Assembly: GCA_003166335.1 (NCBI GenBank)
Contig: PMWA01000069.1
Location: 1 to 10,013, forward strand
Source: Methanobacterium sp.
GTDB taxonomy: Archaea; Methanobacteriota; Methanobacteria; Methanobacteriales; Methanobacteriaceae
DNA: 10,013 bases
Direction: 5' to 3'
Shown here: positions 749 to 10,013 of the stretch, one piece after another
How positions within the stretch are numbered: position 1 is the first letter of the stretch
How the letters are laid out: each line of letters opens with the position of its first letter
Position numbers and translations under genes: made by a program
Notes under the pieces: model-generated
Seen by the model: the letters and a program-made list of their open reading frames with translations, nothing else
What the model was told of the DNA's origin: nothing
The model's database searches: none

Positions 749-1570
749 ATGCATGTAAAAGATGTAATGAGCAGAGAAGTTTTTCATGTGGATAAGGATC
801 AGAATATACACGATGCATTGAAACTCATGAAAAAGCATAAAATCTCCCGACTCCCAGTAATAAACACTAATAACAGCCATATTAAAGAACTGGTTGGAAT
901 AATGACTGAGAAAGATATTGGGCGTCGTCTGGGATCATCTCGCTATGGTAACTTGGCACCTTCTCATTTCCATGTTTCCACGGTTATGACTTCTGAACCC
1001 TTAACCATTGAAAGTAATGAAAGTATAGGAAAGGCAGCTCAATTATTGATTGAAAATAAGATTGGTGGATTGCCGGTGGTGGATGATGGTGAAATCATAG
1101 GTATGATTACTAAAACAGATTTTATAACTACTTGTCAGGGAAGGCCTTTCCATGAAATCACGGTTGGTGAAAGGATGACCTCTAATCCTATAACAGTTAA
1201 TTCTCAGGATAGATTAGTGCACGCAAGAAGATTAATAATAGATGAAGGAATCGGAAGATTACCAGTAATGGAGGGCGACGAGCTAAGTGGAATCCTCACG
1301 GCCAAGGATATTGCGCAATCTATGATATCTTTTAGAAAAGTAGTTCCGGATAAATATAAACCTGCCAGAATCAGAAATCTACTAGTAGGGGATGTCATGA
1401 CTCAAAACGTTAAAACAGTTAGTGAAGATTCCTTAATTGAAGAAGTAGCAACTATAATGGTGGAAAATAATTTCAGTGGTCTGCCAGTTGTTAAAAATGG
1501 AATAATTAAAGGTATCATCACCAAAACGGATCTTTTAAAACTCATTATGGAACTTGAGGAGGTTCACTGA
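749..1570 (+). CDS. CBS-domain protein (4 CBS repeats, two Bateman modules), putative adenyl-nucleotide sensor
   Basis: Four CBS motifs: ISRLPVI..GIMTEKDI, IGGLPVV..GMITKTDF, IGRLPVM..GILTAKDI, FSGLPVV..GIITKTDL. The ORF track starts at TTG 734. ATG 749 (MHVKDVMS) is preferred because SD-like GGAGATG (736-742) precedes it by 6 nt. Stop TGA at 1568-1570. Confidence 0.9.
   Translation: MHVKDVMSREVFHVDKDQNIHDALKLMKKHKISRLPVINTNNSHIKELVGIMTEKDIGRRLGSSRYGNLAPSHFHVSTVMTSEPLTIESNESIGKAAQLLIENKIGGLPVVDDGEIIGMITKTDFITTCQGRPFHEITVGERMTSNPITVNSQDRLVHARRLIIDEGIGRLPVMEGDELSGILTAKDIAQSMISFRKVVPDKYKPARIRNLLVGDVMTQNVKTVSEDSLIEEVATIMVENNFSGLPVVKNGIIKGIITKTDLLKLIMELEEVH
1557..1563 (+). promoter_or_regulatory. 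Shine-Dalgarno AGGAGGT at the end of the CBS gene, positioned for ATT at 1571
   Basis: 7-nt match to the archaeal SD consensus AGGAGGTGA, lying 7 nt before the in-frame ATT at 1571. No SD-like sequence precedes ATG 1610. Confidence 0.6.
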
Positions 1571-2821
1571 ATTTTATCAGAGATAAAATGTAGTCATTGT
1601 AGTTACAGAATGAATGTAAATACGGAAAAAGATTTTCCCAAAACTATTTTTTTTAATTGCTCATCATGTAGTAACAATTATGAACTAACTTTAAAAGAGT
1701 TTATAGTTAAAGAACTTCCCAGAATAATTGATATAGATCATAATAGACTCCTTGAAGCCTATAATAATAGTAATCTGAAATTTTACCACAGTAAATATTT
1801 TAATGCTCTGCAATTCCGTAAAAGTCTGGGAAAGATTGAAGCAGGGACCATGGTCTGTTTTGATAATGAAATTCATGTTATAAGAGGATTTCCCAAGATA
1901 AGAAGGACTTTAATGCTTTCAAAAGCATTAGAGAAACATTTTAATGGTGAAGTAGCTGTTGAAGAGAAAATGAATGGTTATAATGTTCGTATAGCATCAA
2001 TAAATGGTAAAATAATTGCCTTTACACGAGGAGGTTATATATGTCCTTACACTACTAAAAAAGCCCCTCAACTTATGGATTTAAACCAATTTTCCCAGGA
2101 GAATCCGGATCTAGTGATCTGTGGTGAGATGGTGGGAGTAGAAAACCCTTACGTATCCCATTATTACCCTGAAATCGGTAAATTAGGATTTAGAATATTC
2201 GATATAAGAAAAAAGCATTCTAATAAACCATTATCTATTAAAGAAAAAAGAAACATTCTACAAAAATATGATCTTCCATCAGTCAGACATTTAGGAGTTT
2301 ACAGTCTTAAAGACGCTCCCTCTAAAATAATGGAGCTGGTTAAGGAGTTAGGGAAAGACAGTAGGGAGGGAGTGGTCATAAAAGACTTGGAAATGCAGAT
2401 ACCTCCCCTTAAGTACACAGCTTCTCAAGCGCATGATGATGAATTGATATATGCATTTAAATATCCATTTGATTTAGGGAAAGCTTTTTTCTTTAGCAGA
2501 GTAATTCGGGAGGGCTTTCAAGCTTATGAGATGAACGAATCAGCTGAAGAGTTAGGGAAAAGGGCTCAGAGATTGGGTGAATCAATTTTATATCCATTGA
2601 TGGGAACTATAAATCATGTTGCAGAACATAAAGTGGCTGGAGAAGACTTGTTAATGGATGCAGATACTATGGAAGAAGCAGAGGAATTCGTGCGGCATCT
2701 GCGTGATCTGGGAGTTTTGGCTAAGGTAATTGAATTTAAAGATGGTAAGGCGGTTATAAGAAGGATACATCAATCCACTACTGATAAAATAAATAATTAT
2801 ATAAATGGCGGTTTATACTAA
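1571..2821 (+). CDS. ATP-dependent RNA ligase, archaeal Rnl3 family (Pab1020/MthRnl-like), with N-terminal CxxC-x19-CxxC extension. Start uncertain: ATT 1571 proposed, first ATG is 1610
   Basis: Nucleotidyltransferase motifs: I EEKMNGYNVR (adenylated Lys codon 1967-1969), Ia FTRGG, III CGEMVG, IIIa FRIFD, IV REGVVIKD, V LKY. Family-typical IRGFPKIRR and C-terminal region FFFSRVIREGFQ...QSTTDKINNYINGGLY are also present. Confidence 0.92.
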   Translation: MLSEIKCSHCSYRMNVNTEKDFPKTIFFNCSSCSNNYELTLKEFIVKELPRIIDIDHNRLLEAYNNSNLKFYHSKYFNALQFRKSLGKIEAGTMVCFDNEIHVIRGFPKIRRTLMLSKALEKHFNGEVAVEEKMNGYNVRIASINGKIIAFTRGGYICPYTTKKAPQLMDLNQFSQENPDLVICGEMVGVENPYVSHYYPEIGKLGFRIFDIRKKHSNKPLSIKEKRNILQKYDLPSVRHLGVYSLKDAPSKIMELVKELGKDSREGVVIKDLEMQIPPLKYTASQAHDDELIYAFKYPFDLGKAFFFSRVIREGFQAYEMNESAEELGKRAQRLGESILYPLMGTINHVAEHKVAGEDLLMDADTMEEAEEFVRHLRDLGVLAKVIEFKDGKAVIRRIHQSTTDKINNYINGGLY

Positions 2822-7222: not shown

Positions 7223-7888
7223 TTAAAATCCGAATTCACATACAAAAGACAAATGATCTTTTTCATAAGGCTCTAGATCAATTTTCTCCATTACGTGAAA
7301 ACCATTAGCCTTTAACTTTGTTTCTTCCTCATGAAAAACTATATCAGAATTTTTAGTAACATTTATACTTCTTGATTTCAACATTAGAATACCTAAACCA
7401 TTTTTTTTTAAAAATAACCTCATATTATCAATGAAAAGCTCTGTCTGTCGAGGTTGGGCTACATCTGAATAAATAATATCAACTTTTTCCACCAGATGGA
7501 TGTAATTTAAAGGTTTAGTGGCATCATCTAAAATAGGAATCATATTAATCCGTAAATCTGATAAATCAACTAAATTCCGCATCATTCGCGGTGAAAACTC
7601 CACACAATAAACTAAACCTTGAGATGCTATGTCAGATATATGGGACGGGGTAGTTCCTGAAGATGCCCCTAAATAGAGAACTTTCGAATCTTTTTTGAAA
7701 GGAAAAATTTTTAAGCCATTTAAAATAGCTGCAGCTAGTTTAGATCTTCGTTGATTCCAAATTCTAAATTCTGACCCATTTATATTAACTAATTTCTCAC
7801 CATAAACATTTAATGTCGGTGTAAGATTTTGAGTAGCTAAATGGTCGTCTATTAAATATACCCTAGGAAACTTTTCTTTTAAATCCAT
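7223..7888 (-). CDS. flpA: Fibrillarin-like rRNA/tRNA 2'-O-methyltransferase
   Basis: Motifs VYGE, RIWNQRRSKLAAAI, SAM-binding VLYLGASSGTTPSHISD, YCVEFSPR, DVAQPRQ, LEPYEKDH. GAGAGG SD on the minus strand (7897-7902). Confidence 0.96.
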   Translation of the reverse strand: MDLKEKFPRVYLIDDHLATQNLTPTLNVYGEKLVNINGSEFRIWNQRRSKLAAAILNGLKIFPFKKDSKVLYLGASSGTTPSHISDIASQGLVYCVEFSPRMMRNLVDLSDLRINMIPILDDATKPLNYIHLVEKVDIIYSDVAQPRQTELFIDNMRLFLKKNGLGILMLKSRSINVTKNSDIVFHEEETKLKANGFHVMEKIDLEPYEKDHLSFVCEFGF

Positions 7889-7965
7889 TTATTTTTCCTC
7901 TCTTTGCACCTTAATTTATAGAATCAATTGAATAATAGTAAAAAATAATAAATAAAATTGAAAAT

Positions 7966-9171
7966 TTAATAATACAAATTAAACTTTTTTTTATATTTAT
8001 CCTTCTTTTTTTTCTTCTTTCTTTTTTGTTTATCTGATTTTAAACTTTTACTTGGCCTTTTAGGGAATGGATTTGCTTTTTTAATATCATTTAATTTAAT
8101 GTTGAAGTTTTCTTCTATAGAATGGTCAACTTCTCCTGAAAAAACATCTTTACGCGCAGCTAAAGATATTTTAGATGCTAAAGCACGCGCGATTTTTCCT
8201 CTAAGCCACCATTTTGCTCCTCTGACTTCGGGATGCTGGTATATGACACCGTGTTTAGGAGGTCTCTCACCCGTCTTTAAATGTCTGAAAAGAGCTTTTT
8301 CAGCACCTAATACTTGAATAGTTCCTGAAGGTAGCATTGCTAGTTTTTTAATTCCACCTACATGTGCTATTAATTTAGCTCCCAGCGATGCACCAGCCAA
8401 ATTTCTGAGGTTAGGTGCCAAGTCTTTCATTTTTTCCTCAACATATACAGTGAGGGATTTTTTTGTTTTTTGTAGATGTTTTAGGGAATCTGCAAATTCC
8501 TTTAACATGGAGATATCTAAATCGCTAATATCGGCTCCAATACTTTTTTCTATCTTTAAATCAGAATCCAGAATTTTTGAATCTATTATGGATTTTTTGT
8601 ATCCATATTCTGCTACTATTTTAGTGTAGAGTTCATTACTTTTTATTTTATTGAGTTCTGGGAAATGGATGGAATACCATTCTCTTAATCTTTCCGCCAG
8701 TTTGCTAGTTATTTCATCCATTTCATCAATGGTGTTTATAGCTTGAATTAGAAGGAGATCCTCAGATTTTAATGCTTCACTCAAACGATATCTGGTGATT
8801 TCTAGGGATGTTTGGTGGATTATAATATTCATTTCTTCTTTTGTTTCTATGAAACCAGTTTTTTGTAGTATATCAACCAGATTAGATCTTAAAAATTCTC
8901 CTCCTTTATTAGGAGTTCTGAATTCAAATTTATGATTATCTTTAAGATTTTGATACTTTGATTGGGGACTGTTAGTTTCTATTATTATTTTATCATAATT
9001 TTTTACTATTCTTTTTAGTATGGATTCTTCTTCTCTAGTTAAAACATCATTTTGGATTTTAGTAAGTCTTTCAGTAAGTTTTCTACTTGGGAAAAGTTCA
9101 TAATCTAAGAGAGTAAAATTTTCATTAAGGATAATGAAACCAGCAAAACACATGCTTAGATAACACTTCAT
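7966..9171 (-). CDS. nop5: Box C/D RNP core protein Nop5 (Nop56/58)
   Basis: Motifs LLIQAI..IDEMD, ERLREWYSIHFPEL, Nop domain APNLRNLAGASLGAKLIAHVGG, QVLGAEKALFRHL..GERPPKHGVIYQHP, RGKIARALASK, and a Lys-rich tail. ATG 9171 (MKCYL) is preferred over 9309, which overlaps pyrD. Confidence 0.95.
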   Translation of the reverse strand: MKCYLSMCFAGFIILNENFTLLDYELFPSRKLTERLTKIQNDVLTREEESILKRIVKNYDKIIIETNSPQSKYQNLKDNHKFEFRTPNKGGEFLRSNLVDILQKTGFIETKEEMNIIIHQTSLEITRYRLSEALKSEDLLLIQAINTIDEMDEITSKLAERLREWYSIHFPELNKIKSNELYTKIVAEYGYKKSIIDSKILDSDLKIEKSIGADISDLDISMLKEFADSLKHLQKTKKSLTVYVEEKMKDLAPNLRNLAGASLGAKLIAHVGGIKKLAMLPSGTIQVLGAEKALFRHLKTGERPPKHGVIYQHPEVRGAKWWLRGKIARALASKISLAARKDVFSGEVDHSIEENFNIKLNDIKKANPFPKRPSKSLKSDKQKRKKKKKKDKYKKKFNLYY

Positions 9172-9194
9172 AGATTTAATGTTATAATCAAGTG

Positions 9195-9210
9195 ATTTAT
9201 AATTTTTCTT
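9195..9210 (-). promoter_or_regulatory. BRE-TATA promoter for nop5-flpA
   Basis: The minus strand reads AAGAAAAA-TTATAAAT, and the box ends 24 nt upstream of the nop5 ATG. Confidence 0.6.
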
Positions 9211-9227
9211 TGGTATAGGTGATTGTG

Positions 9228-10013
9228 GTGCTTGAAACTGAAATTTGCAGATTAAAAATGAGAAATCCCACCATGTTGGCAGCTGGTGTGCTTGGTAATA
9301 CAGCAGCATCGCTTAATTGGGCCTCAAGAAGTGGTGCCGGAGCAGTGGTTACTAAATCATTTAGTGTAGAGCCTAACAAGGGTTATCCCAATCCAACAAC
9401 AGTGGAAGTGACTGGAGGATTCATAAATGCTGTAGGATTATCTAATCCGGGGGTTGAAGCATTTACATTAGAACTGGAAAAACTGGAAAGATCAGTTCCA
9501 GTAGTGGCATCCATCTATGGAGCAAATCCTGAAGAATTTAGAAAATTAGCAACTAAAATTGGGGGAGTAGTGGATATGATAGAGTTAAATGTATCCTGTC
9601 CTCATGCAGTAGGAGGGTGCGGTGCTTCAATTGGTCAGGATCCTGATTTGACTGCAGAAGTAGTTAAAACAGTTAAAAATGTGATTAAAACTCCAATAAG
9701 TGTGAAATTAACTCCTAATGTGACAGATATTGTTGAAATAGCTGTTGCCTCTCAAAAGGCTGGTTGTGACGCTTTAACCTTAATAAACTCTCTGGGACCA
9801 GGCATGCGCATCGATATTGAAACAGCTCATACCATACTACATAACAAATTTGGCGGACTATCTGGTCCTGCAATAAAGCCAATAGCATTAAGATGTGTTT
9901 ATGATGTATATGAAGCTGTAGATGTACCTTTGATAGGGGTTGGCGGGATAAAAGATTATAGTGATTTAGTTGAATTCCTTTTCGCCGGTGCAAGTTGCGT
10001 GCAGATAGGAACT
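9228..10013 (+). CDS. pyrD: Dihydroorotate dehydrogenase, class 1 (probably 1B catalytic subunit), 3'-truncated by the window edge
   Basis: Not in the ORF track. Manual translation from GTG 9228 gives MLETEICRLKMRNPTMLAAG..GAVVTKS..GYPNP..INAVGLSNPG..ELNVSCPH (catalytic Cys)..VKLTPN..LINSL..GGLSGPAIKP..IGVGGI..AGASCVQIGT. SD AGGTGAT at 9217-9223. Alternative start GTG 9225. Confidence 0.96.
   Translation, partial: MLETEICRLKMRNPTMLAAGVLGNTAASLNWASRSGAGAVVTKSFSVEPNKGYPNPTTVEVTGGFINAVGLSNPGVEAFTLELEKLERSVPVVASIYGANPEEFRKLATKIGGVVDMIELNVSCPHAVGGCGASIGQDPDLTAEVVKTVKNVIKTPISVKLTPNVTDIVEIAVASQKAGCDALTLINSLGPGMRIDIETAHTILHNKFGGLSGPAIKPIALRCVYDVYEAVDVPLIGVGGIKDYSDLVEFLFAGASCVQIGT

Follow-up and report, generated by a model that had tools for sequence, protein, structure and literature searches.

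A probable AUU start codon and a predicted N-terminal zinc ribbon in Rnl3 RNA ligases of the Methanobacteriales

Introduction

Where does an RNA ligase begin when the first ATG of its gene falls in the middle of an apparent zinc-binding motif? We considered this question for an Rnl3-family ligase gene of Methanobacterium sp. (assembly GCA_003166335.1, contig PMWA01000069.1), in a stretch of 10,013 nucleotides (nt) that we call the window. The ligase directly follows a gene encoding four CBS domains. Gene finders start it at an ATG at position 1610, but a preliminary description of this DNA had proposed a longer protein of about 416 amino acids (aa), beginning beside the CBS stop codon at a non-canonical codon and carrying a complete four-cysteine (C4) ribbon that annotation cuts in half. 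Comparison with relatives throughout the order makes us reasonably confident that the ribbon belongs to the protein and that translation starts at the AUU at 1571. What appears to be new is an Rnl3 enzyme with an unannotated N-terminal C4 ribbon, together with an order-wide near-cognate start at the end of a likely sri operon. The features on which the argument turns, all on the forward strand, are as follows.

1557 to 1563, Shine-Dalgarno (SD) motif AGGAGGT, lying over Glu-Glu-Val codons of the CBS gene
1568 to 1570, stop codon TGA of the CBS gene, read in the sequence (TGA in 67, TAA in 19 and TAG in 1 of 87 relatives)
1571 to 1573, ATT, the probable ligase start, judged by SD spacing and by the codon pattern in relatives
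1583 to 1690, predicted C4 zinc ribbon, TFS/RPB9-like with a basic hairpin tip; cysteine codons at 1589, 1598, 1658 and 1667
1610 to 1612, internal ATG, taken as the start by gene finders; its Met likely has a structural role in the ribbon
1571 to 2821, Rnl3 (Pab1020/MthRnl family) ATP-dependent RNA ligase, 416 aa; motif I lysine K133 at 1967-1969

The ligase and its reading frame

The ATT stands immediately behind the TGA, 7 nt from AGGAGGT and 8 nt from its GGAGG core. The CBS open reading frame that ends at 1570 shares its frame with the ligase, and from 1571 to 2821 the frame is open for 416 aa, beginning with ILSEIKCSHCSYRM. It contains no ATG, GTG or TTG between 1571 and 1610, and its Cys7, Cys10, Cys30 and Cys33 form a CxxC-x19-CxxC motif.

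The protein is an Rnl3 (Pab1020/MthRnl) family RNA ligase by its sequence. It scores 420 bits against the whole-protein family TIGR01209 (cut-off 136.9), and carries PF09414 (nucleotidyltransferase) and PF18330 (residues 294-414, E 2e-37); the latter, with a full-length alignment to 5d1o, covers the Rnl3 dimerisation and C-terminal (Lig_C) domains. The motif I residues E131, E132, K133, N135 and G136, with the lysine following two glutamates, are unchanged in 80 ligase sequences. A structural model matches the fold of 5d1o (Z 28.0, root mean square deviation 2.8 over model residues 40-337, 53% identity). By analogy with its family, the enzyme is putatively a homodimer that circularises single-stranded RNA.

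Known Rnl3 enzymes lack the extension, as the preliminary description noted: all six solved Rnl3 sequences, among them the 381-aa MthRnl, begin at profile position 45-56, and the structures align only from residue 40-56 onward. The available portion of PMC4797309 describes Rnl3 with four domains and no zinc ribbon, and the word "zinc" occurs neither in that paper nor in PMC9014305. Since the ribbonless MthRnl is active (PMC2577357, in the part available), the ribbon is not catalytic.

The ATT at 1571 is not a sequencing error, a possibility raised in the preliminary description. Residues 1-416 are 100% identical in two other metagenome assemblies, and contigs from three RNA-library runs extend across 1568-1573 without any listed gap, joint or deviating letter. 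One of these contigs spans 1470-1720 without a difference, although it may be a source of the DNA sequence, and such contigs are no proof of transcription; their depths cannot rank genes and were left unused. That the real message might nevertheless hold an AUG, through sequencing error, RNA editing or splicing, strikes us as hardly credible. Nothing was found in its favor, the same ATT recurs in independent assemblies and in 64 genomes, and the RNA-library contigs match the DNA letters without a joint, with the proviso that contigs drop rare variants and may derive from DNA.

Conservation and predicted structure of the ribbon

Out of 328 genomes in the order, one per species, 136 proved to have the ligase in an alignment search. 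With one genome of the same class added, 137 ligase loci were taken and 133 parsed (G100, G101, G112 and G122 remained unparsed). An intact in-frame CxxC-x15..24-CxxC motif is present in 89 of the 133, in 15 of 16 genus groups and three of four families, so the motif had indeed been kept among relatives as the preliminary description asked, while the frame relation between the ligase and the CBS stop, which it had coupled to this check, did not hold throughout. Eighty-seven of these loci also have a parsed CBS gene and are the ribbon-bearing loci counted below; in the other two (G088 and G108) an ATT stands 7-8 nt after GGAGG, judged by eye.

The codons upstream of the internal Met evolve as protein-coding sequence. 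The nine codons before it have a ratio of nonsynonymous to synonymous change (pN/pS) of 0.33. The two remaining frames of this segment give 0.88 and 0.70, and the ligase core gives 0.17-0.21, so that the front half of the ribbon motif is coding. This figure comes from 572 within-genus pairs from 85 loci, which are not independent. Invariance of the cysteines and lack of stops within those 85 selected loci would be circular and were unused as evidence. Both TGT and TGC occur at the Cys1 and Cys2 codons.

The structure prediction that the preliminary description had suggested agrees with a ribbon. AlphaFold2, run on a 22-sequence alignment with the ribbon as part of a larger protein, gives a sheet of three strands (13-17, 25-30 and 36-40; predicted local distance difference test score 69-89). 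The best PDB match to a profile of the first 60 ligase residues is the RPB9/TFS ribbon 1qyp (E 6.2e-6). In Pfam, residues 1-50 draw only sub-threshold matches to several zinc-ribbon families (TFIIS 15.6 bits against a cut-off of 21), and an ESM Atlas search with the same residues gave no usable match; fold searches with the whole model return matches to the ligase domain and so say nothing about the ribbon. The acidic Asp-Glu hairpin tip of the TFS/TFIIS cleavage factors, visible for 1qyp in the alignment, is replaced in the ligases, whose linker has a net charge of +1 to +5 in 82 of 87 and of 0 in five. We predict that the N-terminal four-cysteine segment is a zinc ribbon, which would bind one zinc ion.

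Annotation does halve this ribbon in most cases. A ribbon-profile search returned 68 proteins, of which 66 are Rnl3 ligases. Among the 120 database homologues listed, 86 begin between the two CxxC pairs, four have the full motif and 30 lack it.

The ribbon was found in none of 21 ligase loci of another archaeal phylum; Methanococcales, Methanosarcinales and Halobacteria lie outside the survey. A quick maximum-likelihood tree built from 129 ligase cores and six outgroup rows (midpoint root, support by the Shimodaira-Hasegawa-like approximate likelihood ratio test only) places ribbonless groups inside ribbon-bearing clades. The ancestor of the group therefore likely already had the ribbon, and several lineages lost it afterwards, the MthRnl-like one among them. 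We also considered an origin of the ribbon from a neighboring CBS/zinc-ribbon gene, and rejected it: outside the order, the gene directly upstream of the ligase is SriD-like and without cysteine pairs, and in a single locus (L396) a CBS/ribbon-like gene lies two genes ahead of the ligase.

A few irregular loci deserve mention. In L032, L250-L252, L257, L282 and L305, up to about 25 codons of low-complexity, Ser/Lys-rich linker separate the ATT from the ribbon, and the ligase has a further insertion after motif I. L008, L009, L272, L275, L281 and L308 show frame breaks or decay in the ribbon region, reflecting either homopolymer assembly error or true loss; the database protein P0005 shares the shifted frame of L008. 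This query found no ligase in the other 192 of the 328 genomes, and some genus groups gave no match at all (0/103, 0/26 and 0/24).

The start codon

Evidence for the AUU start comes from the relatives. A GGRGG motif is present in 86 of the 87 ribbon-bearing loci, and 7-9 nt after it, in the ligase frame, stands ATT in 64, ATC in seven, CTG in seven and ATA in six, or 84 of 87 in all. The preliminary description had asked whether relatives carry ATG or TTG here; none does, as neither ATG, GTG nor TTG occurs at that spacing in any of the 87. A canonical codon is found somewhere between the in-frame stop and Cys1 in 14 loci, in none of them at 7-9 nt. This spacing is the normal one for the organism: GGRGG precedes 56 of 436 unambiguous canonical starts in the genome, with a peak at 7-9 nt. 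The 3' end of the 16S rRNA was not found in the assembly, which is why the expected spacing is derived from genes of this genome.

Selection acts on the SD motif at the nucleotide level: of the Glu codons that it overlies, 149 of 150 are GAG, a codon used for 20% of Glu elsewhere in the CBS gene, and one ribbonless clade has GAA in 19 of 19. The motif is missing altogether from two ribbonless clades (19/19 and 9/9). At the start site, 64 of the 77 Ile-type codons are ATT; at the Ile position two codons ahead of Cys1 the figure is 19 of 67. In the seven genomes with a linker before the ribbon, the ATT keeps with the SD motif, and in G147, where the ribbon has been deleted in frame, a CTG is still in place behind it. 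AUA at 1583, offered in the preliminary description as a second candidate, is not the start: it is an I/V position two codons before Cys1, 20 nt away from the SD core, and shows the variation of an ordinary codon.

The distance between the CBS stop and the near-cognate codon is also constrained. It ranges from -4 to +3 nt in all 84 such loci, and stop followed directly by ATT is the commonest layout (52/84). We take these observations together as support, at the level of sequence, for the AUU start next to the CBS stop that the preliminary description had favored.

Several points weigh against a ribbon-bearing ligase translated from a purposefully weak AUU. Forty-four of the 133 parsed ligases have no intact ribbon, and the likeness to TFS rests on an E of 6e-6 across 36 positions of a cysteine-rich profile. 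Three of the 87 loci lack a near-cognate codon at 7-9 nt, and the SD motif is retained in nine of 38 ribbonless loci. A TTG lies 4 nt from the SD motif in G115 and L128, and two database proteins, known as protein sequences only, begin just before the ribbon; a few lineages may therefore start at TTG. The relatives are not independent, so that p-values drawn from them overstate the case. About 15 other near-cognate start sites in the genome allow a neutral reading of the weak codon. Finally, the ATG at 1610 is kept in 77 of 87 loci, and although no SD-like motif precedes it in any of the 87, an SD-like motif is present at just 132 of the 436 unambiguous canonical starts of the genome, which makes its absence weak evidence.

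The last point leads to the obvious rival, in which the annotated ATG is used, either as the sole start or for an additional shorter isoform, and the codons before it are untranslated or belong to a minor form. Besides the conservation of the ATG, it is favored by the 304 of 436 true starts in this genome that have no SD motif and by the 86 database proteins that begin there, which merely reflect gene-finder rules. The purifying selection upstream is contrary to it. So is the fact that 10 of the 87 loci have CTT, CTC, ATA, TTG or GTG in place of this ATG, and that two of the relatives, G017 (91% identical) and G040, have their first canonical codon at residues 55 and 89, respectively, which already belong to the ligase fold. 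In five genomes the ligase probably begins at the internal Met, and there the second CxxC has decayed too. We consider translation from ATG 1610 quite unlikely as an explanation of the locus, while a minor short isoform made beside the full protein is possible.

Because the two genes share a frame, readthrough of the UGA at 1568 could instead yield a CBS-ribbon-ligase fusion of about 690 aa, which the preliminary description had mentioned with a lower rank. The shared frame recurs in 61 of 87 loci, 50 of which also have TGA. The frames 0, +1 and +2, however, are represented by 61, 9 and 17 loci (two of the nine look like single-base assembly errors or decay), which puts 26 loci with an intact ribbon out of frame; 20 of 87 end the CBS gene with TAA or TAG, and the stop is lost in none. 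The combination expected of programmed readthrough, the same frame and the same stop across relatives, is thus not seen. No protein longer than 421 aa occurs among the best 120 of 1305 database matches, in a search extending up to 728 aa, and the codon after the stop behaves as a start rather than as an ordinary Ile. As a general mechanism readthrough does not survive this comparison, and we think it very unlikely here, though it might occur at a low level in this one organism. Insertion of selenocysteine at the UGA was also considered and set aside: no tRNA-Sec was among the tRNAs found, which form an incomplete set, and the relatives with TAA or TAG make the idea moot.

We give only a very slight chance to a start at an NTG overlapping the CBS stop (in the window, CTG 1567), after which a programmed frameshift would bring the ribosome into the frame of the ligase. 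An NTG does overlap the stop in 67 of 87 loci and is in the ligase frame in eight. Such a scheme, however, needs a +1 shift in the frame-0 loci and a -1 shift in the frame-1 loci with no common slippery site; 20 of 87 have CTA or TTA and hence no NTG, and the RNA-library contigs have no inserted or missing letter.

An AUU start beside the stop, at normal SD spacing and with no canonical codon in its place, is left as the probable arrangement. A hairpin hiding this start was rejected as a general feature, as the mean z across 78 distinct start regions is +0.17, only two reach -2, and the structure is not conserved. In this genome and a few close relatives, an 8-bp hairpin lies over the ATT at about 1566-1594 (z -1.63).

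Probable near-cognate starts elsewhere in the genome

The ligase is not unique in this genome in having a near-cognate start. Among long open reading frames without an SD motif at their first canonical codon, there are 26 in-frame sites 7-9 nt behind a GGRGG, of which 12 are ATT, ATA, ATC or CTG, versus 14% expected (p 8e-5), and three are ACG; the ligase is among the 12. Two other genes served as controls. The first (L311:208; G000:C51:5208, forward strand), which we take to be a CDC48/VCP-like gene, has an SD-led ATT here and, over 30 loci, ATT in 10, ATC in nine, ATG in nine, ATA in one and AAA in one. The second (L312:179; G000:C110:40079, forward strand), a conserved 162-aa gene, has CTG in seven (this genome and six close relatives) and ATG in 17 of the 24 parsed from 30. 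This exchange of ATG with ATT, ATC and CTG supports the view that the organism can use near-cognate starts. The genome has an aIF1 gene, which itself appears to start at ATG.

About a dozen more SD-led ATT, ATA, ATC or ACG sites before a first canonical codon were noticed on contigs C9, C16, C20, C23, C38, C64, C68, C98, C99, C107 and C115 of G000. Three of them are on signal-peptide-like N-termini and three are at ACG.

These sites give some room to a reading in which ribbon and AUU start are both real and the weak codon serves no purpose: the lineage tolerates near-cognate starts behind a strong SD motif, and translational coupling compensates. The exchange seen in the two control genes points the same way. 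The controls, however, carry ATG in 9/30 and 17/24, whereas the ligase has none in 87 over three families, even though a single change would turn ATT, ATC or ATA into ATG, and 19 of 21 ligases outside the order have a canonical codon in place. A purposeless weak codon is possible but, to our minds, doubtful. What sets the ligase apart from the other near-cognate genes is its 0/87 ATG.

The upstream genes

The ligase follows two CBS-domain genes, both on the forward strand.

1 to 705, CBS-domain gene (Pfam CBS), likely SriC, truncated at the contig edge; its top match in the PDB is 9zni_6 (E 8e-42)
749 to 1570, gene with four Pfam CBS domains, likely SriD; its last codons hold the SD motif of the ligase

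A profile (A4) of the second gene best matches chain 7 of 9ZNG/9ZNI (9zng_7, E 4.5e-55), and its Met at 749 is unchanged across 80 aligned sequences. In the available part of PMC13004131, 9ZNG is the 70S-SriD complex and 9ZNI the 70S-SriC-SriD complex. The pair thus shows four CBS domains, closest matches to Sri chains and the Sri gene order, and the two genes likely encode the SriC and SriD ribosome hibernation factors, which as such would bind the small ribosomal subunit and inhibit translation; the assignment is by best PDB match, that of PMC13004131 by a tree. The main text of that paper, on the sri genes of Methanosarcina acetivorans, does not contain the word "ligase". The order CBS-CBS-ligase was seen again at many ligase loci outside the order. 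A scan for promoters and terminators with bacterial models gave nothing above shuffles, archaeal promoters being outside its scope.

Farther downstream, 4.4 kb from the ligase, the window holds at 7223-9309 two genes that, from their translations, we take to be fibrillarin-like and Nop5-like. Box C/D RNAs are circularised by Rnl3 in Thermococcus (PMC9014305).

A possible mechanism

The layout suggests termination-reinitiation. According to the accessible portion of PMC10666635, the reported range for this process covers -4 to +3 nt, and a distance of about 20 nt almost abolishes it; ATG 1610 lies 39 nt from the CBS stop. A small subunit finishing the SriD-like protein would stay anchored on the SD motif and reinitiate at the adjacent near-cognate AUU. 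The weak codon would be kept by selection because it keeps ligase levels far lower than those of the Sri proteins encoded alongside it: the ligase would be a catalytic enzyme that adenylates, circularises and trims RNA ends, whereas Sri proteins would act one per ribosome. The ribbon, with its basic tip, may be an accessory RNA-binding finger that the group acquired at its base and that several lineages then lost; ribbonless relatives such as MthRnl would ligate without it. This regulatory purpose of the weak codon is less certain than the ribbon and the AUU start themselves.

A more ambitious version, rather improbable as a whole, would have the ligase that closes this hibernation operon be a ribosome-associated RNA repair enzyme. 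Its weak start might sense initiation stringency, through the level of aIF1 or the action of Sri proteins on the small subunit, and its TFS-derived ribbon might steer it to RNA ends on resting ribosomes, making it an order-wide archaeal counterpart of infC and pcnB.

Significance

In the parts available, an initiation review gives AUG, GUG and UUG as archaeal start codons (PMC7531240); ribosome profiling in Haloferax placed about 30% of putative alternative sites at near-cognate codons, set aside as possible false positives (PMC7261190); CTG starts 5% of new small open reading frames in Methanosarcina (PMC11456600); and aIF1 discriminates against non-AUG starts (PMC6237735). The available portions of PMC2718504 and PMC12153264 add nothing on archaeal near-cognate starts. 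A literature search, with most subscription journals outside it, found neither a paper joining Rnl3 and a zinc ribbon nor a report of a conserved AUU start in Methanobacteriales.

One gene with a near-cognate start across three families, four weak codons and no ATG in 87 genomes would be a clean and testable case of selected weak initiation in archaea, and ribbon-bearing ligases occur in cultured methanogens such as Methanobacterium oryzae DSM 11106 and Methanobacterium sp. ACI-7. Most Methanobacteriales that have the ligase would possess an Rnl3 with a domain that the studied MthRnl lacks and that is mostly truncated in databases, and cloning these ligases from annotation would yield half a finger. 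The physiological substrate of Rnl3 is poorly known, and the accessory finger and the tie to the Sri operon are concrete leads.

Comparison with known systems

The ligase resembles the Rnl3 enzymes MthRnl (MTH1221, 381 aa, PDB 5D1O), Pab1020 (2VUG), the Palaeococcus ligase (8UCE) and Aquifex 3QWU in TIGR01209, PF09414, PF18330 and the motif I sequence EEKMNG, and differs from the characterized members in about 40 extra N-terminal residues with the C4 motif and in its near-cognate start. Those residues share the CxxC...CxxC pattern and, by prediction, the three-strand sheet of the C-terminal ribbon of TFS/RPB9/TFIIS (1QYP), although the ligase ribbon is four residues shorter, has a neutral-to-basic tip in place of Asp-Glu and is fused to a ligase. 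The upstream CBS genes match the SriC and SriD chains and follow the same order as in the sriABCD operon of Methanosarcina acetivorans, but the likely sri operon here extends into the ligase gene. The stop-to-start distance and the SD motif inside the upstream gene are those of termination-reinitiation coupling, whereas the restart codon is near-cognate and stop-then-ATT most often replaces the usual -4 or -1 overlap.

The bacterial precedents for a near-cognate start are infC (ATT/ATA), E. coli pcnB (ATT), Deinococcus dnaA (ATC) and rpsL (CTG) (PMC2830850, in the part available). In contrast to these, the ligase is archaeal, its start sits at an upstream stop, its codon switches among ATT, ATC, ATA and CTG, and no feedback loop is shown. 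The likeness lies in an SD-led near-cognate start kept in relatives, which in those genes is thought, according to the available text of the same source, to limit or regulate output. The product of pcnB, too, is a nucleotidyltransferase acting on RNA ends.

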